This document shows, in pieces, positions 5,174 to 34,994 of a DNA stretch of 64,000 nt. This DNA comes from Fimicolochytrium jonesii (taxonomy: Eukaryota). Position numbers and translations under genes: made by a program. Every line of letters starts with the position of its first letter. Position 1 is the stretch's first letter. Location: assembly GCF_025526975.1 (NCBI RefSeq), contig NW_026515671.1:930001-994000 (forward strand), read 5' to 3'. The notes beneath the pieces were generated by a model that was given only the letters and a program-made list of their open reading frames with translations, was not told the origin of the DNA and ran no database searches.

Positions 5174-5446
5174 AAGATTACGTACCATTTCGATCTTTTT
5201 TTATTGACATGTGTGACCAGTCTAGATCGTCCAAATATTAACTAATGAATGACGAAACTTACCGAGATTGCTTAGATGACATTTCCCAGAAGCATATGTT
5301 TCGAGAGACATATATACTTCTTTTGAGGTGAGGTGATAAGCGTGTATACAGGCAATAATTTTGGATTTAATTGACGAACGCCTTCAATGCAGGAAGCAAT
5401 ATCCTGACTATTTCGCGAGTGTTAAGTTCAACATTCGGCAGAAAAA

Positions 5447-6196
5447 TGTTATGGACGACGTGCCCATACCATAATCTTACCTACTGAGAGCTGCCATTGT
5501 CAAATGCCAATATCAAACGCCAATGTCAAACGCCAATGTCAATGTCAATGTCAATGTCAATGCCAATGTCAATGCCAATGTCAATGCCACTCCGCCACTC
5601 TTGTAAGAGGAACACACACATTTTGGCTTAGTGGTTAAGACACCTAGCTCTCACCCAGGTGGCGTGGGTTCGATTCCTACCTTCCCCAAACATTTTTCTC
5701 TTCTTTCTGTGACTGTACCACCTCTCCAGGGCGTTCCGAGCAATCGGGACGATTCCCTTGACATCTCTCCTCTCATTTTGCCAATCCTCCCGCAATATCG
5801 CCACTCCTCCTCTCCCCTCTCATTTCGCCAATCCCTCATTCGCCGCTCCTCCTCTACCCTGTCCATCTGTGAGCCAATCTCCGGCCATTTGTCGACCCCC
5901 CCAGTACTTCTCCACAGCCAGCAGCTGTAGCTTCCTCTCTACGCCTGCTACGCTCGCTCTAGGCTAGGGAGCAGAGCTGGCACTCACTAAGTCCCCTCTT
6001 GTTGTTGTCTTTGGTCTGCTGGGTTGTTTATCCATAAATAGCCGCCCCCTCTTTGTCCATTCCCTTCCTCCCCAGCAGATCAACACCAGTTCTTCTCGTC
6101 TCTTGTTCTAGTCCTTGTCTCTTGTTTCGCCAATACAATCTCTTGTCGCCCATCGCTCTCGCCTTGTCTTCCGCCTCAGTCGTCGAGATCGTAACA
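5447..6196 (+). mobile_element. Solo LTR of family A (related to LTRs 28954-29492 and 34457-34994)
   Basis: TGTTA...TAACA termini, 5-bp TSD AAAAA (5442-5446 / 6197-6201), AATGTC microsatellite, colinear with the family A LTRs. Confidence 0.9.
5602..5763 (+). mobile_element. 162-bp TG..CA insert containing a tRNA-Glu(CTC)-derived sequence
   Basis: Absent from the other two family A LTRs; TGT...ACA ends; flanks ACTCT/TCTCT; A box 5624-5634, anticodon arm 5643-5659, B box 5667-5677, T5 run at 5693. Confidence 0.7.
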
Positions 6197-6798
6197 AAAA
6201 AAGCCTTTGTGCAGATATGCGGTAAAGATGCTGCGTCCACTCCTTACGATTTGTCAAATGCTTCTCAACGTGAAGTTGCAGGACTCCGTATCACTGAGCA
6301 TTTGATCCCGAGTTCCCAGTACAGAAGACTTACATCATATCACGACCGAGATTTGATTGAAGCTGTCAGACTGCTGCCTAATCCCGATTTTCAGACAATC
6401 ATAGAAGCTCTGACAGCCATGGATATATTCTAGAAGGGTTTATAGTATCTCACTCTAAAATATATTCCTCCCAATCTTTGCCCTTTATCTGCGTTATCCC
6501 CAGTCGATCCACGCTTTCCTTCGCTCTTCTTTGTATCTCTATCAGCGCTTCATCAGGATCCTTTGACAAGGAGCTATCTTTCTCAAAAGGGACTTTCCTA
6601 GCATCTAAGGATAGCATTTCTAAGCGCTGAAGTAGTAACCTTCCCATTGTTTCTATACAGGAGTCAGGCATACTTAAAACAAGGCTTTTTAAAAACATTC
6701 CTTTCTTACCCTTAAATGTTTTTTCTGACAACGCTAACCGCAAAAATTTGCTTGGAACCTCAGTCAAAACCTCGCGCAAACTCCTATCAAGCGAAGTA

Positions 6799-11700: not shown

Positions 11701-14605
11701 GGGTCAAGTGGCGGAGTGGGAGCATGACAGGCTTGGAGCCGGGCTTCAAGTTGATGCTGAAGTTGTCGTCGTCGCGGTCCGGCGGGAGGCCGGTCTGTTC
11801 GGTGAAGAGGGTATCTGTAAACTGTTCCAACGGGCGAAGAGGGTGGTCGGGGGCGACCGATGCGAGTGGATCCCCCGGGTGGTATCGGAGGGGTGTCCGT
11901 TGCCTTTCGGTCCGCAATGATCGCACATTTCTTTGCCTCGACCGTGCGAACGAAGTTAGCCTCTGCTTCGGCGACGTCCGTGAGGGTGTCGTCTGTGGCC
12001 AGGTCCACCTCCGTGTCTGTGCGTGAGACCCATGCGGTATAGACCTCGGTGGCCTTATTCCTCTTGATTCCTCGCTTGAATTGTTTGGCCGTGAGGAAGC
12101 CCTCCTCATTTAAGGCCGCGCGCTTTGGGTAGAAACGGCGGGGGTGAGGGCCCGTATGAGGTTCGAGTAACCGGGCCGCGCAAGCGCTGGGTTGTTGCCA
12201 TCGGCGGGTGGTAGGTTTAGCTCGGAAAGTTAGTACGGTTGCGTTAGCCTCAATTGAAGCGCCGGGAACCCATTGTCGCGCCATAAGCGTATGAGGTCAA
12301 GGTCCAAGATGTAGGGTAGCCCTAGGATAACATCCGCGCGGATCGGGGCCACGACAAACGGGACCCGAGGGGTCTTATGAGGTATTCATTCCTCCGTGAA
12401 GACGGAGAGGTTGGCACAAATCATCCGCGTGGTGCCGTATGATCCGGCTTTGTCACCCCAGCGCACCTCAAGGGGCATGGGACAGTCGTACGTGTTAAGA
12501 TCATGGCGTTGGGCAAATGAGTCGCTAATGAGCATGGTATTGCAACCAGTGTCTATGAGGGTGCGGCAGAAGATGCCGCCGACACGTCCATGGACCTTGA
12601 ACGTGAGCTTGTCGATGATGGGGGTGGGGCGGTATTCCGGAATGGTGTCCTGCAGTCGGGGTCCGGTAGGTCCCTCGGGTTATCTGGACGCTGAGGCGCT
12701 GCAGGCGGTCAGGCCCTGGGCAGAAAATCCTGACTGTCGATGGAGTATGCGCGGCTCGGGGGCTTCCGCGGCCAAATGAAACTTGTCGTTGTCATCATTG
12801 AAGGCCTTGGCGGGCGCCGCCGAGATCTTGAGTCGTCCGGGTTCTTAGGGCACGCCCGGGCGTAGTGGTCCTTGCTGCCGCAAGTGTGACATTCGCCTCG
12901 CTGAGTTTTCCTCTCCTTCCCAAGGGGTACTCGGTTGGAGTTGAAGGTGGGGGGCGTATCGCGCTTGTCGCAAGCCTGGCCGGAGTGGCCGTTCCGGGTT
13001 GGACCCGTTTGCCGTCTCCGAAATGTGGGCAATCCCGTCGGCATAACCCCCGATGCGGAAGGCCCTCTGGGCGGCTCCCTGAAGGGTCTTGATGGGGATG
13101 TCTTCGTCCTCATTGCCCTGTTGTAGGATGAACTGGTAGCACTGCTCACGGATGCGACGTCCGACCTGGTGGAAGGTCAGCCCGTTCAGGAAGTACTCAC
13201 GTTCCTGTCGCGGAGTGAGATGAGATGTTCCTTTTTGGGGAGGATAACGATCTGTGTGGTCAGTACGTTGAAGGCCGGAACGTAGTCGGACATGCTGTCT
13301 TTGAACTTCAGGGCGGCCAGTTTCGCCTCGACCGAATTACGGAGGTTGGCGGTGGGGTAGAACCTGCGCCTGAGTGCCTTCAGGAACCGTTCCTGGGTGG
13401 CGGAAGGCTCTCCGGAGCGAGCCTCGAGCTTCCACCACTCAGCGGCGTCTCCCAACAAGTGGGCTACGAAGTGTTTCACATCCCCGTCCTCTGTTCTGAA
13501 TTCGGTAACTTCCAGATAGCGTAGGTGGGCGTCGACGAACTCGTCCAGTTTGGCGACCATGTCTTTACCATTAGCCTTACCGTCAAACTTGGTCAGCATC
13601 TTAGCCAAGGTGGTTCGGAACTCCTTCTCGGTGGCCGCCTTGCGCTTACGCTCTTCGCTAGCCGCCAAATGGTCCTCGCGGCTAACCCGTACTCCAGCGA
13701 AGGGGCTGTCATCTGGGCAGTCCCTCTCCAGGCGCTCGAATTGCTGCTGGAGTTGGGCGTTGGTGTTGGCCAGCTGGGCTAGGATTTGGAGGATTGTTGC
13801 CTGTCCGTTCTCTTGTCGGGCTGGGGTACGGCTCGTGCGCCGCATGGGGGAGCGGCTTCGGGTCCTCGCCGGGGAGCGGCTGCGGTAGCGGCTTACTCAG
13901 CGGCTCCTTCGACGGGGGGGGAGATGCTCCTGCGACTCGTCGTCCGCGCCTGTATCGCTCTGGCGTCCGATTCTGGCGTCGAGGGTCCGGGCTTCGACGT
14001 CGACAAGGTGAGCGTGAGCTGGAGTGCCTCCTTCCAGGTGGCGACCACGGGGGTGACCCCCTGCGCCTGTGCAAGGGGCGGTTACGCTCTGCGGGGCCGT
14101 TGCCTTGGCGTTGGTCGCTGTCGAGCCGTTGCGCCCTTCGATGCGGGTGTTCAAATGGATCAAGCTTTAAGCGGTCATTGTTAACTATCGCAGAGCTGAC
14201 GGCGGTATTAGCACCCGCCTGAGAGTTGCTCATCGTAGGTTGCCGGAGAGATCTTTAAGGATGGTGCTACCATGTAATAATGCTAGGTCCGTTGCCAGAG
14301 GCTAGCTCTGTCTCCGCTCGATGTATTGAAAGAATTCTAGAGTTTCTACCTCCGGGACGCCGCCCGAAGGCTTTTCTTCCCTTCGGGAGTCACCCCAGAG
14401 CGTAGGACTCCAATATAATCTATGCTACCCGTGATCTCATGCCCTACGCGCTTCCCGCTCTAAGGTGACACTGCAGCACCTCATTACACACTCGCTGTCG
14501 CTTGAGAGCCTTCTTTAGGCTGTCCCCTTTGTGTGTTTGAGGCAAAGGTGTCCCTAAGCGGACGTCGTGTGTGATGTGTGATGTGACACTTCGCTCTAAG
14601 GGGGG

Positions 14606-14825
14606 TGTAATGAGATGCTGCAGGTGTCACCTTAGTGCGGGGAAGCGCGTAGGGCATGAGATCACGGGTAGCATAGATTATATTGGAGTCCTACGCTCTG
14701 GGGTGACTCCTGAAGGGAAAGAAAAGCCTTTGGGCGGCGCCCCAGGAGGTAGAAACTCTAGAATTCTTTCAATACATCGAGCGGAGACAGAGCTAGCCTC
14801 TGGCAACGGACCTAGCATTATTACA
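14606..14825 (+). mobile_element. Family C 3' LTR of a second, oppositely oriented copy
   Basis: TGTAAT...ATTACA, reverse complement of 14273-14488, preceded by PPT CTAAGGGGGG. Confidence 0.9.
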
Positions 14826-15257
14826 TCTGAGCTGCTTCAGATGGACACAGATAGCATGTATATGGCGCTTGCCGGTGACACCATTGATTCCCTGGTGAGG
14901 CCAGAACTCAAGGAGCAGTTTCTACAGGAACGCGGGTTTATGGTTGGTTGCCGATGGGGATGAATACAACGAGAAGACCCGGGGCTATTCAAGATAGAGT
15001 TCACCGGGACAGCGCTGATTGCCCTGGCACCCAAGATGTACTTTGTGGTTGGAGATGAAGAGCAGTTCCTACGGAGCAAGAAGCGCAGCAAGGTGAGCTG
15101 CAAGGGGACCAATAAGAAACAGAATGTCGATCTTCTGACCTACGACAATTTCAAAAAAGTATTGGATGGACAAATCAAGAAAGAGTTCATACAAATGGTC
15201 AACAAAGGTTTTAGATGTTACAGGACGCAGTTGTACCAATATGAAACAACGGCGTGA
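14826..15257 (+). pseudogene. C-terminal fragment of a protein-primed-type family B DNA polymerase (Maverick/Polinton-like)
   Basis: LLQMDTDSMYMAL (motif C), PGLFKIEF, ALIALAPKMY, KVSCKG, LTYDNFKKVL across frameshifts; intronless; cut by an LTR. Confidence 0.8.
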
Positions 15258-23958: not shown

Positions 23959-25160
23959 CTACTCCGCGGAAGTCTCCGTCCAAGAACTAAGCTTCCACGG
24001 CTTGAAAGGGTTGTCGACGGAGTTCACAGAAGAGGCCAGCTCTGGGAAGTGCCGTGAGATCAACCCCTTGAAGTTGCCCTGTGTCTCGATGTACTTGATA
24101 CCCTCCGCGGTGTATATCTCGGGTTTGTAGTCGTCAGTCAAGAAACGATCCGTGAACAATCGCCGGGAAGCCATGAGGATGAAGATGTGGAACGCCGTGT
24201 CACCGAACCCGTAACCGTCTGGTCTCGGCTCCTCTGCCAGTGTGCCGACGAGGAGGTCGACGTCTTCGGGAACTCGGTAAACGGACTGCAGGAGGGCTTG
24301 GACCTTCTTGTCCGGGTTGATGTCCGCGAAGGTCTTGAAGTCTGGTTTGAGCCCGATCTCGCGATGGACTGAGGGTATTTCAAAAAATCAAGATGATTCG
24401 AGACGTTAGTTCCGGGCCGGAAAGAGCTATTAGCTTTCAAGCTACTTTCTTACATTGCAAGTATCGGGGTATTCCACGCTCGCGATCGCGGTAGATTTCG
24501 GTGGTCGCCATATCGATGATATAGGGTTCATTTGGCTTGGTAAGATTCATCAACCACGCCTGAGGGAAGGAAATTTACAATCCATGGCTGGGGTTTGCCG
24601 TTCCGCCTGGTGACCACCCCAATAGGTGGCTCCCGACGGAACGGCTTCGCGGGCAAAACCGCGCACGCATATATTAGCAACACCGCATATACATACATCC
24701 ATCGCAAACAAGGGAGGGTGGGTAGCTGATTGAATTGCTATCTGCGTTGCTTTTCCAGTGAGGAGGAAAGAAAAGAACGAACTTGAAGGCCTTTAGATAC
24801 TACGGCCGTGCCAGCAACACAAATGGGTCACGTGGCTCCACGTGCACCCCACTTTCTGGGCATTGCCCATTACGATTGTCAACATCGGAAAGTTGCAATT
24901 TTCATCGTTGTTTGTTCACTCACCGGGTAGATGTTGCGCGGAAGAGCACCGGGATTAGCTGTCCCAAACTTGTAAACAACATTGGCCAGCTTATTTTCGG
25001 CGATCATTCGGCGGCCTCCTTTGAGAGTGATTGACGGCAAATCGTACACACGACCGGACAACTTCTTGGATTGCGCATCCCGAATCTCGATTGTATCGGG
25101 TGTCAATGAATGCAGACAGTAGACAGCGGTGAATTCCTCCGTCAGTGAGAAGGGCTGCAT
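23959..25160 (-). pseudogene. Alpha-dioxygenase-like haem peroxidase (peroxidase-cyclooxygenase superfamily), 5'-truncated pseudogene
   Basis: PFSLTEEFTAVYCLHSL, NIYP|AWLMNL across intron 24923-24560, EIYRDRERGIPRY, DVDLLVGTLAE, FILMASRRLFTDRF, NPFKPW. Confidence 0.85.
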
Positions 25161-25655: not shown

Positions 25656-27637
25656 TGTTGGGGATATCTCATCTTCACTTGTATTTCATATTATACCTCT
25701 TTACTTCTACTTCATCCGAGACCCGGGCTGGCCACCCGAGCTCTCGGTGATACATTACATAAGGCGCCAAGCCTCATTGAAGCCACGCAAGCCCCACTGG
25801 CAGCCCATATATAAAGCGGTCAGTCGAGCGGCCGCTGCGAAGAGCTTCTTACTTTTTTCTTCACTACAATACACTGCTCTCAGCCCTCTCGGAAGGGCCC
25901 AATATCGTCTATGTTTCCTCTGACGTTACATGGTAGCACCACCTACCGCTAGCATCACCAAGAGATTCCTCGTCAACGTCGCCCCTCTACCGGACGTCGC
26001 CCTTACACTCGTTCACAAGCAAGAATGGACCACCAAACTCAAGCTATCGTTGCGGCTGTCGCAGCTGCTTTCGCTTCTTGGGGGCGTGCTGTTACGCAAG
26101 ACACCCAACAAGCCGAGCGTTTCAGACTTCTTATGGACGCTCGCAAGAACAAGCTTGTCGAATACGATCGCGCCAAAGCTGCCAAAGAGATCGAAGAGTT
26201 TGTTACGTCTCACATCAACTCCCTCGAGTCTCTCACTGTCCCGGCTGTACAAGCTGGACCAGACGGTACTGGAACTGCCACTGCCATAGCCTTTAATATG
26301 GCAGAGTACGCTCCTACGCTCACTACCTACCTCAAGGGTACTGCTCTTGAGTGGTACAATACAACTTACGCCGCCGGCGCTCCCGTGAGTTGGACAGCTT
26401 TTCAAACGGCTCTTGTCGCTCACTTTTATCCACGCAACTTGCGTAATACTATTGAGCTCAAGCTTTCTGGCCTCAAGCTTGGTGACTCTCTCGAAAAATA
26501 TATCAAGGAGTTTCAAGACACCAATAATGAGCTCGAAGCCGCTCATTGTCTCGATAACACTCAAGGCACCACTCCCCTTATCGATCAGATTCGATACTTC
26601 AAGGCCGGTCTGCTCAAGAATACAGTAATCAGTCATTATCTCGCTGAAGCCGTTACGACCTTCGAAGTCACGAGCACTACCAACATCAACACCCCTATCA
26701 CGCTCGATCAAGCTATCACTGCAGCGCGTCGTGCTCATGTGGCTCATGGGTTCACTGACGGCTACCAAGCCAATACACCTCGTCCGATGTCCTTGGCAAC
26801 AAGTTCTCGTGACGGCCGTGGAGCCAGTTGCGGTCGAGGTAGTCGTGGCGGTGGTCGTGGTGGACGATACGCCCCTTACACCAATCCTCGAATTACGGAA
26901 TTTGAGCAAGACTTAGATGATATGACCTTTGGGCTCAATGCCCTTGGTACGTCATACTATCCCCCTGGAGTGAGTCGTATCACTACAGGTCAAGTTCCCT
27001 ACCAACGTCAACAGCCCTTTCGCCGACGTGGACACTGGCAAGCTACTCACGGTCCTCGTCAACGTCCAACGACTCCCTGTCCCCTTTGTAACAAAATGGG
27101 ACATTGGAGAGTTGAATGCTGGTCAAATCCCGAAAAATTGACAGCAAGGCTCGCAAACCCAGAAGCGACGCGGTGGTCTTCGACAGTGCGGTTGTGGCGC
27201 TCAAACTCCGCAGCCCAGTTGCCAACCTAATCAACAACAAGGTTCAGCCAATCAGGTTGATGCTGGGTCATGCATTACGGAAATTCTTGATGACGCCGTC
27301 AACTCAGCGAATACTACGAATACTACTAAAAATCAAGCTTCGAGTTTTTTCCAAGGTCGATAGAGCCCCTCGTTAGCTCTGCTCGGCCTACCACATACGA
27401 TCCTACCAATAAACCTGCCTTCGAACCACTGTCTGCTGGACTCAGGGTCTCTCATTGTCGCATCGGAAACAAGTTTACTCGTGTTCTTTTTGATAGCGGC
27501 GCTACTGGGTTATTCCTTGACAAGACATTCGTCGAAAAGCACAAATTTCCCAAGAAACGTATCGAACCGAAGCAGATATGGCTGGCCAACAAAGAATCAT
27601 ACATGATTCTCGACACAGTTGTTTCGGAAAAGTTAGA
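25656..27637 (+). mobile_element. 5' half of family B gypsy element: LTR 25656-25930, PBS, gag 26025-27230, protease
   Basis: TGTTG...TTACA then PBS TGGTAGCACCA; CPLCNKMGHWRVEC knuckle; VLFDSGAT. Confidence 0.9.
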
Positions 27638-28953
27638 TTTCCCCTTTGCTCGTTGAAAGAATTGTCAGATCATCAACGTAGACGGCAATGATGATAAAAC
27701 CTCGGCCAATGCGCTTTATGTAAAGAGCATAGTCTGGTTTGGAAACGTTGAAGCCTTTTTCTCGGAGGTAAGCGTCCAACACCTTATTCCATAACTGAGG
27801 TGACTGTTTCAGCCCGTATAGGGAACGTTTGAGTTTCACTGTTGTCCCGTCTGGTAGGCGAAGGTATTTTACGGTGTCAAGGTTCCCATTCAGGAATGCG
27901 GCCTTTACATCCATCTGATGGATCTCCAAGTCGTGTGACGCTGCGATGGCTAACAACATCCGCAACGTATTAAACTTCACGACGGGCGCAAACGTTTGGT
28001 GGTAATCTATTCCCTCTCTTTGCGTAAATCCTCTGGCTACTAAACGTGCCTTGAACTGCTTGATAGAATTGTCAGGATTGCGCTTTACTTTAAAGACCCA
28101 TTTGGAATCTACTGTGTGTCCAGTGTTTTTCTGATCAGACGATTCCCAAGTTCCGTTCTTTGCGTGAGAGGCAAGTTCTTCTTCCATAGCGGCTTGCCAT
28201 TCGCGTGAGTATGGGGATTTCATAGCGGCTTGCAGTGTGGTGGGTTTATCTGTGTCCACCGTAGCTACCAGGAGTTCCGCTCCTGTGTACTGACCACCGT
28301 CGTCTTCGGCCCCCAAAAACTCAGATAACGCTACTGCGTCTTTTACAAATTCGTAGGGTTCCATGTGGGGTCGTCAAAACCTTCCCACTTGACGAGGTAC
28401 TCCTTCTCCCCCAAATCTCCATCTCCACTCGATAAGAGTATTTTCTCAATGGCGTATTCTGCAGGGTCTTCTGATCCAGGAGCGACGGATTCGCTACGAC
28501 TGTTTTCTTTGTTGAAGGTTACATCCTGAGACTCAAATATCTCGAGCATATCTTCATCAATGAGACGATAAGTGTCATGTTTAGTGGCATGATACCCAAG
28601 TAAACGCAACGGACCTAGTGCCCAGGCGAAAGTTTACTTCTCCTCTTCTGTTTAGGGATGTGGAGGAACGCCTCACTCAACGGTGTCCGCAAAGTCAATA
28701 TATCCGCTGATTTCCCATACCATTTGTGGTATGGAGTTGTGCCAGTAGCACTGGCCGGTGTCCTTTGTCTGAGGTAATTCACCAAAACGGCAAATTCATT
28801 CCAAAGGTTTTCTGGCACGTTACTCATCCACATTATGGTGCGAACTTGATCCATAACTGTTCGATTGAACCGTTCCGCAATACCATTTTGTTGGGAGGAG
28901 TACGGCTGTGTCCGGACTAGCGAAATCCCGGCTTCTTTGAGTTCATCCAGCAT
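27638..28953 (-). mobile_element. Ty1/copia pol fragment: integrase - chromodomain - RT
   Basis: PYSSQQNGIAERFNRT integrase; WVFKVK..KARLVARGFTQ, HQMDVKAAFLNG, SLYGLKQSP, VYVDD RT; INT precedes RT (copia order). Confidence 0.92.
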
Positions 28954-31900
28954 TGTTATGGACAACGCGCCCATACCATAAGCTTACCTACTGACAGCCG
29001 CCAATGTCAACCGCCAAATGTCAAACGCCAATGTCAATGTCAATGTCAGTGTCAATGTCAGTGTCAATGCCAATGTCAATGCCACTCCCCCTCTCTCCTC
29101 TCATTTCGCCAATCCTCTTGCAATATCGCCACTCCTCCTCTCTCCTCTCATTTCGCCAATCCCCCCCTTGGCTTCTCCACACCCCCCACTGCTTCCCCAT
29201 AGCCAGCAGCTGTAGCAATGCTCTCTACGCTCGCCACGCACGCTCTAGGAGCATAGCTGGCGCCCCCCAGTCCCCTGTTGTTGTTGTTGTTCTCTGATCT
29301 GCTGGGTTGCCTATCTATAAATAGCCGGCCTCTCTTCGTCCATTCCCTTCCTCCCCAGCAGATCAACACCAGTTCTTCTCATCTCCTGTTCTAGTCCTTG
29401 TTTATTGTTTCGCCAATACAATCTCTTGTCGCCTGTCACACTCGCCCTGTCTTCTCTACTTCGCTTCCGCCCCCATTGTCGAGATCATAACAGTTTGATC
29501 TGCTCCAACACTGCGAAGTTCAGAACCTGTCCAGCCCTGCATCCGACAAACCTTTTTCGCCATGTCCCAACCCGAATCCGTACCTTTCACCGCCAAGCAA
29601 TGGAACGATATGTGCCAAGCCATCGCCGCCTTGCAAAGCCAAAACGCCAACTTGCAGGCCAACCTAGCGCAAGCCCAAGCCGACGCACAAGCTGCCCAGA
29701 GCATCGCCGCCCAGGTTCAAGCCGATACGTACACCCGTCCCCAAGTCGCCAACCCTGCTCTGGAGCCAAGAATCAGCTCGCCCGAGAAGTTTGATGGTAC
29801 CCGCAGCAAATTCCGTGGGTGGTTGAACAACATCCAGTTGATGTTTGCTCTCCAGCCCGACCGCTACCCCAGCGACATCATCAAGATCCAAACTATTGGC
29901 ACCTACCTCACCGGCACTGCGCAAGCCTGGATGGCGCCCCTAGTCGAACGCCAAGATCACAGCCTTCAGGACTTCAATAGTTTTATCAGTCAGATGCAAT
30001 CGGTCTTCGGAGACAGCGACAGGGTCCGCACCTCTGAAAACAAGCTCCAGAACCTTCGCCAAACCCGTGCAGCAACCGAGTACGTCGCTGAGTTCCGCCA
30101 GCTACAATGCGATGTCTCCTGGAACGACCAGGCCCTGATTGCTACCTTCCGCCGTGGCCTCAAAGAGGACGTCAAGGACCTGATGCTCACAATGCCCCCT
30201 GCTGTCCACCATTGATATGGTGATGGAGCAGGCTATCCAGTGCGATAACCGGCTGTTTGAGCGCCGCCTGGAGCGAAACAGAAGCCGCCAGACCTTCCTG
30301 GTTCCCCACACCTCAGTTTACTACTACCACCACTGTCGACCACAGCGAGCCTATGCAGATTGACGCCGCTCGTCCCCGCGGCCCTCTGAGCCCTCAGGAA
30401 CGCCAACGCCGCATTTCCAACAACCTCTGCCTTTACTGCGGTGGCGCGGGGCACATTGCAAAAGTCTGCCCCGTCAAGAACAAGACCACCACCCGTGCCG
30501 CCAATGTCGACATGAAAGAACCCTCCACCGAACAGGGTTTTCCCAAAGTCCAGCCGCAGTAAAGCCCCAGCGACTGGACAACACACACCGCCCCGGGCCT
30601 CCTAACCTCGCAGCTCCTGCAACGGGAGAGGCCACCCCCCTGGTTCCCGACTCCGTTATAGCTGACACAACCCTCCTAGCCGCTGCCCATGTCGAAAACT
30701 CCGAAATTAACCCCCGCGCCATGCTTGCGCTGGGTCCCATCGAACCCTTCAACTACCCCGTTACCATCATGGTATCATCCAGCCGCGCCCCGATACCTAC
30801 CTCAGCCATGATCGACAACGGTGCCCTGTCCTGCTTCATCGACAGAGACTTTGCCCGCAAACACCGCATCGCCCTAGTCCCGCATCAGCGTCCACTGACG
30901 ATCGAACTCGTTGACTGTCAACCCAGCTCTGCTGGGCCAATCACCCATCACACCCAACCAGTAGGCATGTGGGTCGACGACCACTTCGAAGAACTCGTCT
31001 TCCATGTCACCAAATCACCCCATGCTCCAATCCTCCTTGGTCTTCCCTGGCTCCGCCTCCACGACATTAACCTTGACTTCAAGAACCTTTCGGTCGGTTT
31101 CCGTTGCGACTGTCTGTACCATGAATTCGCGAATTGGGACAACTCTCCAGCACCCCTGAGCCCAGCACCCGCCAGAACCCCCGAGCCCTTGATCCGCATC
31201 CCCCAGGATGAAGTCCCCGTCGACGAAACATGGTCGATTCCAGTACCCAAGGTATCTCGCTCCAGCACCCCAGAACCGGCTCCCACGCCGCTCCGAGTCT
31301 CGTTCATCTCCGCCCCAGCCTTCCAGGTCGCAGCAAGGCATGACCAGGTCTTTGTTGCCTACGCCAACCCTGCGAAACCCGATCTCCCAGCCTCGCCTAG
31401 CCCCAGTAACCCCCCGACACCCGAGAAAGACATCAAAGACTTCCTGCCCCCCGAGTATCAGACTTCGCCGACGTTTCGAAAAGAGAAATGCTGACACTCT
31501 CCCCGAGCACCGGCCCTACGACTGTCCAATCGATCTGGAAGAAGGCAAGCAGCCACCTTTCGGCCCGATCTACAGCCTCAGCGAACCAGAAATGAAGGCA
31601 CTCTGCGAATACCTCGAAGAAAACCTCGCCAAAGGATTCATCCAACCCTCAAAGTCCCCTGCCGGTGCGCCAGTCTTATTCGTGAAAAAAAGGACGGTTC
31701 TCTCCCCCTCTGCGTGGATTATCGAGGCCTGAACAGCATCACGGTGAAGAATCGCTACCCCCTGCCCCTGATCAACGGTATCATGGATCGTCTGCGCGGT
31801 GCCCGCCGTCTCACCAAGATCGACCTCCGCGGTGCTTATAACCTCTTATGCATGCGCCCGGGCGATGAATGGAAGACCGCCTTCCGCTGCCGCTATGGCC

Positions 31901-34900
31901 TATTCGAATACAACGTCATGCCCTTTGGACTCAGCAATGCTCCTGGCGTTTTCCAGTACCTGATGAACAACATCTTCCGCGACATTCTCGATGTGTTTCT
32001 TGTTGTCTACCTTGATGATATCCTGATATTCTCCAAGAACCCCGAAGATCTCCCCAAGCATGTCCGCGAAGTCTTGTCCCGCCTCCGCCAGCATGGGTTG
32101 TACGCCAAACCAGAGAAGTGCGAATTCAACCGCAAATCCGTCGAGTTCCTAGGCTTCATCATCTGCGAGAAAGGCATCCAGATGGACCCCAAGAAGATCG
32201 CTGCCATTACGGATTGGGAGCCTCCCAAGAATGTCAACGGCGTCCAGCGTTTCCTCGGCTTTGCCAACTTTTATCGCCGATTCATCCAAGGTTACTCCAA
32301 GATTGCTACCTCGCTCACAGCCCTGACCCGGAAAGACATCCCGTACGCCTGGACACCCGCCGCAAACACCGCCTTTGAGAACCTGAAGAAAGCATTCACC
32401 ACCGCCCCCATCCTTGCTCACCCTGACCCAGAGAAGCCCTTCGTCGTCGAAACGGACGCCTCCGACTTCGCTCTTGGCGCAGTTCTCCTCCAACCTGACC
32501 AGGACAATCAGCTCCACCCCGTGGCCTTCCACTCTCGCAAATTCACGGCCAAAGAGATCAACTACGAGATCTACAACAAGGAACTTCTGGCCATCCAAGA
32601 CTCCTTTGCCCAGTGGCGACACCATCTCATTGGCGCCCGTCACAAGATCACCGTTTACTCCGACCATAAAAACCTTCAGTACTTCATGACCACCCGCACC
32701 CTGAACCGCCGCCAAGCCCGCTGGTCGATATTCTTCTCGGATCTTTGACTTTGTCATTACCTATCGCCCCGGTTCCCAGCAGCACCAAGCCGATGCCCTC
32801 TCCCGACGCTCCGAACATGAGCTAAAAAATGGGGAAGAAGCGTTCCGCTCCCAGGCAACCACAATTTTGACTCCCGAATGCCTTCGACTCGCCGCGGCCT
32901 GCCTCACACCCATGGATACCATGCTTCTTGACATGATTAAGGCTGCCCAGGCCTCTGATCCCCTCGCTAAGGCCATCCGCGAAGAGCTCAAGATACCCCT
33001 CGCCCAACGGACTGACGAAACCCAAGATCGTATCAAACGGTTCTCAGATGAAGAAGGAATCCTGCTGCACGATAACCTTGTCTATGTCCCCACCAACAAG
33101 CTCCGAGCTGAAGTCTGCCATGACATGCACGATACACCCCTAGCCGGCCACTTTGGGATGTCCAAGACGCTCGAACTCGCCTCCCGCAACTACTGGTGGC
33201 CCAGCCAGTGGCGCTTCGTCAAGGCTTACGTCAAGTCCTGCGATACCTGTAGCCAAGCGAAATCCAGTCGACACAAACCATATGGCCTACTCCAGCCCAA
33301 CAGTATCCCTACCCGCCCTTGGGGATCTTGGTCCCTGGACTTTATCACCGGTCTGCCTCCCGTGGACGGGTACAACTCCATCCTGAACGTCAACTCTTGC
33401 CTCACCAAGATGGCCCACTTCGTTGCCTGCAGCGAGTCAGAATCTGCCGAATCCACCGCCGACCTAGTCTTCCACAACATCATCCGTCTCCACGGCCTCC
33501 CCAACGACGTCATCTCTGACCGAGGACCCCAGTTTAAGTCCCGGTTCTGGCGTCGACTTCTCAAACTCCTTGGGGCAAAAGCCAACCTCTCCTCGGCCTT
33601 CCACCCCCAGAGCGATGGCCAGACGGAACGCACCAACCAGATCCTGGAGCAGTATCTCCGATGCTTTTGCAACCACCAACAGGACAACTGGAAACAGCTT
33701 CTGTCGTCCGCCGAGTTCGCCTACAACAACACCCACCAGTCCGCCTCCCAGACCACCCCCTTCTACGCCAACAAGGGTCTCCACCCCCGCTTCAGTTTCG
33801 CGGCCTCCGCTACCTCCGAATCCGTCAACCCCGCCGCTGAAGCCCGCGCTAAACAAATCAGGGAAGTCCATGAACTGCTCGCCTTCGAGCTCAAGGAAGC
33901 CCAAGATCAAATGAGGCGCTACGGCGACGCTAGACGAATTCCTGGACCGGACTTCAAGCCTGGCGACCACGTCTGGCTCCTCCGCAAAAACCTCTAGACA
34001 ACCCGGCCCTCTCAGAAACTCGACCATCGCAAGATTGGGCCATTCCCCATCGTTGAAAAAATCAATCCCGTCGCCTACCAGCTCAAGCTCCCGCCTACGT
34101 ACAAAATCCACGATGTCTTCCATGTCTCGCTCCTCGAACCCCGCTTCACCATCCCCAAACGACACGAACCCGAACCCGCGCCCCCAGAGACCGTTGAGGG
34201 TCAAGAAGAGTGGGTTGTCGAAGCCATCCTTGACTCTCGCATCCATTGTCGTCGCCTTCAGTACTTGGTCAAATGGCAGGGCTGGCCTGACTCCGAGAAC
34301 ACCTGGGAGCCCGTGGAACACCTCACCCATACCGATGCACTCCTCCAGGACTTCCACAGCGCGTACCCCAACAAGCCTTCCTCTGTCCCTGTAGCACCTC
34401 CTCTGCGGCCACACCAACCTCGACGCCGCCGCCGCCGCCGCTAAAGAGAGGGGTGATGTTATGGACGACGGGCCCATACCATAAGCTTACCTACTGACAG
34501 CCGCCAATGTCAACCGCCAAATGCCAAACGCCCATGTCAATGTCAATGTCAGTGTCAATGTCAGTGTCAATGTCAATGTCAATGCCACTCCCCCTCTCTC
34601 CTCTCATTTCGCCAATCCTCTTGCAATATCGCCACTCCTCCTCTCTCCTCTCATTTCGCCAATCCCCCCTTGGCTTCTCCACACCCCCCACTGCTTCCCC
34701 ATAGCCAGCAGCTGTAGCAATGCTCTCTACGCTCGCCACGCACGCTCTAGGAGCATAGCTGGCGCCCCCCAGTCCACTCTTGTTGTTGTTGTTCTCTGAT
34801 CTGCTGGGTTGCCTATGTATAAATAGCCGGCCCCTCTTCGTCCATTCCCTTCCTCCCCAGCAGATCAACACCAGTTCTTCTCATCTCCTGTTCTAGTCCT

Positions 34901-34994
34901 TGTTTCTTGTTTCGCCAATACAATCTCTTGTCGCCTATCACACTCGCCCTGTCTTCTCTACTTCGCTCCCGCCCCCGTCGTCGAGATCATAACA
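28954..34994 (+). mobile_element. Full-length Tf1/sushi-like gypsy chromovirus, family A (LTRs 28954-29492 and 34457-34994), with several frameshifts and stops
   Basis: ~539-bp LTRs differing at roughly 15 sites; [81 protein letters not shown]. Confidence 0.96.

Follow-up and report, generated by a model that had tools for sequence, protein, structure and literature searches.

The insert and its surroundings

The DNA analyzed here, a 64-kb stretch of a Fimicolochytrium jonesii contig (the window), contains between 5.4 and 38 kb a nest of Gypsy pieces together with one Copia fragment. The nest includes a solo LTR of a Gypsy/chromovirus family (family A), within which sits a short segment with tRNA-like sequence (the insert), and two further family A LTRs that are empty at the corresponding site. 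The main features are as follows:

5442..5446, + strand: left 5-bp target-site duplication (TSD) of the host solo LTR, AAAAA
5447..6196, + strand: LTR A1, solo LTR of Gypsy/chromovirus family A (TGTTATGG...CGTAACA), host of the insert
6197..6201, + strand: right 5-bp TSD of the host solo LTR, AAAAA
5597..5601, + strand: left target-site copy of the insert, ACTCT (4/5 match)
5602..5763, + strand: insert, 162 bp, TGT...ACA, probable solo LTR of a Helenus-type TRIM
5764..5768, + strand: right target-site copy of the insert, TCTCT (identical to the empty site)
27636..28953, - strand: Copia fragment (RVT_2, integrase), truncated on both sides by Gypsy sequence; its LTR was not found in the window
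28954-29492: LTR copy A2
29092..29096, + strand: empty site in A2, single TCTCT
34457-34994: LTR copy A3
34595..34599, + strand: empty site in A3, single TCTCT

LTRs A2 and A3 enclose open reading frames for gag, RT/RNase H, integrase, and a chromodomain, and are 97.4% identical to each other; A1 is ~88% identical to both when the insert is left out, and is separated from them by other indels as well. The Gypsy element that they delimit (28954-34994) has mismatched flanks (AGCAT and ATTTG) and adjoins the Copia fragment on its left side only; it probably represents an insertion that was rearranged or that arose by recombination. The 5' part of the family A LTR carries a (TGTCAA/TGCCAA)n hexamer array, at 5510-5590 in A1, where the array is 12 bases longer.

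Several other features of the window were recorded. Two head-to-head pieces of a third LTR family at 14274-14826 form an imperfect inverted repeat of ~550 bp (84% self-match), and next to its 14274 end, on the minus strand, is a word resembling an iMet-type PBS, before a broken Gypsy element at ~8.7-13.9 kb. A 97-codon frame at 14964-15257 has words (LAPKMY...VSCKG) reminiscent of the C-terminal region of family-B DNA polymerases of Polinton or DNA-virus type. A fragment of an animal-type haem peroxidase lies within the transposon nest at 23962-24387 (Pfam An_peroxidase, E 8e-17). The closest relative of a RasGAP exon in the window is from Geranomyces michiganensis (85% identity), and the best named relatives of a WLM protein are from Spizellomyces punctatus (59%), Borealophlyctis, and Rhizophlyctis. 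These proteins mark the source as a chytrid, probably from the Spizellomycetales.

Boundaries and internal layout of the insert

An initial annotation had described a 162-bp segment absent from the two other family A LTRs, and the alignment bears this out: relative to A2 and A3, A1 is longer by 167 bases at a single site, equal to 162 + 5. Gap-free placement of the extra stretch is best at 5597-5763 (six mismatches), with 5602-5768 giving seven and a total of 10 placements being at most one mismatch short of the best. Where the empty site has one TCTCT, the filled site shows ACTCT, TGT...ACA, TCTCT, a duplication matching at four of five positions. The ends of the insert are set by the empty-site comparison independently of sequence motifs, and they fall on TGT...ACA and on a 5-mer duplication. 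Within the window, the background for TGT...ACA at fixed ends is 2e-4, and only 3 of 1,530,552 position/length pairs combine such ends with a flanking 5-mer repeat of at least 4/5; because ends of this kind are rare there, their coincidence with the alignment gap is unlikely to be due to chance. The duplication is imperfect, by one mismatch, and lies within a low-complexity C/T stretch. The end motifs, the near-duplication, and the imperfect terminal inverted repeat are all as originally described, the last being weak (6/9 and 8/11 matches, with no extension). The 3' end reads CCCTTGACA, and an A-rich or simple-repeat tail is absent.

Two further ideas about the insert as a whole were discarded. 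A special RNA fold is ruled out by minimum-energy comparison, in which the complete insert does no better than shuffled sequences (z -0.36; tRNA part, z 0.15). In one orientation, its ends and those of LTR family B share TGTAAG...GACA, a likeness too short to count.

Inside the insert, a tRNA-like cassette lies close to the 5' end:

5602..5616, + strand: 15-bp leader upstream of the tRNA position-1 equivalent; putative very short U3 with Pol III start
5618..5624, + strand: 7-bp direct repeat ACATTTT, 5' copy, at the cassette edge
5624..5688, + strand: tRNA-like body, positions 8-73; acceptor stem absent in register
5624..5634, + strand: box A, TGGCTTAGTGG, fits TRGCY...YGG
5667..5677, + strand: box B, GGTTCGATTCC
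5690..5696, + strand: 7-bp direct repeat ACATTTT, 3' copy, at the cassette edge
5693..5697, + strand: T5 run, predicted weak Pol III terminator and putative R/U5 border
5698..5763, + strand: 3' part, 66 bp, putative U5; predicted hairpin at ~5725-5761

The tRNA likeness of this cassette exceeds chance. With the pattern used, its A-box/B-box pair is the sole pair on both strands of the 64 kb, and dinucleotide shuffles reproduced the pair in 1 of 20,000 cases with the strict pattern and in 38 of 20,000 with a looser, Helenus-type pattern. The Rfam tRNA model matches 5625-5688 at 27.8 bits (E 0.0018), under the gathering score of 29. Pairing is kept at 3/4 positions of the D stem, 4/5 of the anticodon stem, and 5/5 of the T stem, the anticodon loop holds CTC, and the variable region has 4 nt, so the A box, anticodon arm, T arm, and T5 run of the initial annotation stand, as does its missing acceptor stem (0/7 pairs in register). 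The tRNA part is non-functional in shape, and ARAGORN predicted no tRNA genes in the window. A second Rfam match, to Plastid-ycf2 on the minus strand (E 0.19), is merely the reverse of the tRNA likeness and was set aside.

Derivation from tRNA-Glu, as originally proposed, is plausible from sequence comparison. A natural tRNA-Glu(CTC) gene (L024) aligns with the cassette without gaps, at 41 of 72 identical positions and with identical anticodon and T loops; as L024 was retrieved with a pattern that contains both loops, only the spacing counts as independent evidence. The acceptor 3' strand of L024 matches the insert at 0/7 positions, and the comparison thus supports Glu ancestry only in part.

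Folding of the 3' part gives a modestly supported hairpin, with z -1.78 over the 66 bases, and z -3.43 over a 40-base stretch that was picked post hoc from the fold. Separately, the flanks of the cassette (5605-5612 and 5695-5702) can pair at 8/8 positions, one of them G-U, in an arrangement absent from the predicted minimum-energy fold; such an outer stem could replace the lost acceptor stem.

A probable Helenus-type TRIM

The anatomy of the insert fits the initial annotation's first suggestion, the solo LTR of a retroelement bearing a tRNA promoter, and it matches a known group that the annotation did not name. Helenus elements are TRIMs with tRNA-derived sequence in the LTR, with box A as TRGCY/YGG and box B as GGTTC (Kojima 2024, PMC10886601). 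According to the same paper, the TSD is 5 bp in fungal and plant families, solo LTRs are frequent, some families are known from LTRs alone, and fungal LTRs span 106-284 bp (its Table S1). We consider it probable that the insert is the solo LTR of such a miniature LTR retrotransposon (TRIMp3). Like the Helenus LTRs described there, it carries both boxes in tRNA-derived sequence inside an LTR, has TGT...ACA ends of the LTR type TG...CA, is flanked by a 5-bp duplication with one mismatch, has a length within the fungal range, and contains a tRNA that is unlikely to be functional. In terms of sequence, all the Helenus features described in that source that can be visible in a solo LTR are present. 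By eye, the fungal Helenus LTRs in Data S1 of the paper also have a T run right after the tRNA part, and GCTTAG(T/C)GGT and CACCTAG are common to the insert and six small rust families (111-112 bp). Six longer diagnostic words of the insert had no exact LTR match in the Helenus supplement, the single match being to a wasp internal region.

The insert differs from the published families in its host, a chytrid, whereas the fungal rows of the paper are all Basidiomycota and its main text nowhere uses the word "chytrid". It differs further in the position of its cassette near the 5' end, its 66-bp 3' part, and its Glu(CTC) loop; it also lacks an acceptor stem in register, whereas acceptor stems in the supplementary fungal Helenus sequences, judged by eye, often still pair. 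Finally, no internal portion is seen.

The initial annotation had pointed to plant Cassandra elements, with their 5S promoters, as the nearest case. The comparison holds to the extent that Cassandra, too, is a non-coding element whose LTR contains a Pol III promoter taken over from a small-RNA gene; according to PMC10886601 and PMC7215508, however, Cassandra uses the type-1 promoter of 5S rRNA and is confined to plants, whereas the insert has the type-2 promoter of a tRNA. An Rfam scan of the insert to E 10 gave two matches, neither of them to 5S, the trait of Cassandra and Ajax, and Helenus is the closer case.

By analogy, the tRNA-derived A and B boxes of the insert would likely act as an internal RNA polymerase III promoter. 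The full element would consist of two LTRs around a short internal part with a PBS and a PPT. Pol III generally starts a short distance upstream of box A, about 18-20 bases. In the proposed cycle, transcription would begin within ~15 bases of the left edge of the 5' LTR, and part of the transcripts would read past the weak T5 run; their end at the T5 run of the 3' LTR would make R correspond roughly to the tRNA-like part and U5 to the last 66 bases, and U3 could be tiny because, with Pol III starting within the first bases of the LTR, it would have no need to hold a promoter. In budding yeast, five Ts are described as a minimal (weak) terminator and six as required for fairly efficient termination (PMC9278858), so a T5 run could pass some transcripts in the 5' LTR and stop some in the 3' LTR, a strength judged from yeast that may differ for chytrid Pol III. 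Gag, RT, and integrase would be supplied by an autonomous helper, by analogy a Copia, and integration would produce the 5-bp duplication; the solo copy would have been left by LTR-LTR recombination, with a later change of one TSD base. Copia was proposed as the helper of fungal Helenus from PBS likeness (PMC10886601), and the fragment at 27636-28953 shows that this superfamily occurs in the genome, although nothing ties that fragment to the insert.

If this assignment is right, Pol III-driven TRIMs extend to Chytridiomycota, far outside the rusts and mushrooms of PMC10886601, and the insert would be a case of a known mechanism in a new host group, a fungal phylum not listed for Helenus in the describing paper. 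Our literature survey, with Repbase outside its scope, found no report of a chytrid Helenus, and a 2026 sugar-beet paper (PMC13570524) cites Helenus without, in the text consulted, going beyond the citation. The case would also bear on the choice between an ancient origin of fungal Helenus and many separate origins. Kojima 2024 notes that the Pol III function of Helenus lacks experimental validation, and that Helenus LTRs inflate tRNA gene counts in rust annotation (PMC10886601). With its tiny leader, the LTR of the insert offers a compact test case for the claimed Pol III transcription.

Alternative origins and further copies

Several observations count against the assignment to Helenus, among them the imperfect duplication in its C/T stretch, the missing exact word matches, and the contrast in acceptor pairing, all given above. 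Within the window there is one copy of the insert only, and a two-LTR form is unseen: blastn with word size 7, searches of both ends allowing three mismatches, and nhmmer --max found no second copy. Since the host LTR differs from A2 and A3 by 12% and by indels, the empty site is that of a sister subfamily. Further, the 66 bp that follow the T run are longer than the corresponding part of most fungal Helenus LTRs examined.

The ACATTTT repeat at the cassette edges raises the question of how the tRNA part was acquired. An unlikely but conceivable history is that the insert is an independently born chytrid TRIMp3, in which the repeat is the target duplication left by a 5'-truncated tRNA-Glu copy or SINE head that landed in an LTR of ~90 bp; capture of a tRNA into an LTR is a step proposed without demonstration by Kojima 2024 (PMC10886601). 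A 7-mer repeat at the cassette edges (within two bases) arose in 33 of 20,000 shuffles, in a test made after the repeat had been seen. In such a history, a cassette-free sister LTR of ~90 bp, joining 5602-5617 to 5690-5763, would be expected in this genome or that of a relative. However, the acceptor 3' strand can pair at 5/7 positions with GAGGAAC at 5607-5613, so the same anatomy would also follow from a full tRNA into which 10 CA-rich bases were inserted behind position 7.

It is improbable, in our assessment, that the insert is a solo LTR in which the Pol III boxes are mere passengers, whether its parent was a larger and possibly autonomous LTR element or an ordinary TRIM with a single past capture of a tRNA piece. 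The ends and the duplication indicate nothing more specific than an LTR-like element, and ACATTTT at both cassette edges would suit a later insertion of the cassette into an LTR of 90 bp. Against this, both boxes and three stems have been retained and the acceptor lost, as in Helenus; moreover, the repeat test was devised post hoc, and the alternative 5' acceptor strand accounts for the layout without a second insertion.

SINEs start at the tRNA head, have no internal terminator, and finish in an A-rich or simple-repeat tail. The insert resembles a tRNA-derived SINE (SINE2) in being short and non-coding, in carrying tRNA-type A and B boxes near its 5' end, and in its short duplication. A SINE-like insert was the second option of the initial annotation, and one could picture such a SINE, or a tRNA retropseudogene, placed here by LINE machinery and bearing TGT and ACA ends by chance. 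We judge this quite improbable: the 15-bp leader puts the tRNA position-1 equivalent well inside the TGT end, the T5 run falls in mid-element, there is no tail, and ends of the LTR type at fixed positions have the low background given above. We further infer that a Pol III monomer transcript could not hold both the bases upstream of its start and those downstream of the T run; both would be restored by LTR-type reverse transcription but not by SINE-type copying.

A non-autonomous DNA transposon (MITE-like) with a tRNA fragment would be in keeping with the small size and the partial complementarity of the TGT...ACA ends, but the terminal inverted match does not extend beyond its few paired bases and the whole element folds no better than shuffled sequence, making this origin very improbable. 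Least probable of all is that the segment originally belonged to a longer LTR-A subfamily and was lost by deletion from A2 and A3: A1 has further indels relative to those two copies, which are the only empty ones in the comparison and are nearly alike, yet TGT...ACA and a 5-mer repeat are not expected at plain deletion ends, and the host LTR is that of a long coding element, with a TATA-like site of its own further downstream.

Searches beyond the window identified no relatives of the insert. Four low-depth DNA metagenome runs (from eight listed, with shares of 0.05-0.10) yielded 12 contig pieces, all of them on the host LTR and none on 5602-5763, at a depth too low to weigh; the listing included no RNA runs. 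A scan of metagenomes with a 30-base pattern from the insert returned 0 loci, as did a scan of viral contigs. A metagenome pattern combining the ends with the A box returned 23 loci, none of which is a relative, the best blastn alignment covering 22 bases of the A box at E 0.042; three of the 23 had a B box, and none of these three had a flanking 5-mer repeat. Two of the unrelated metagenome loci, L004:601-766 and L007 (a minus-strand match), carry tRNA-like A and B boxes with odd anticodon arms, and appear SINE-like by eye.
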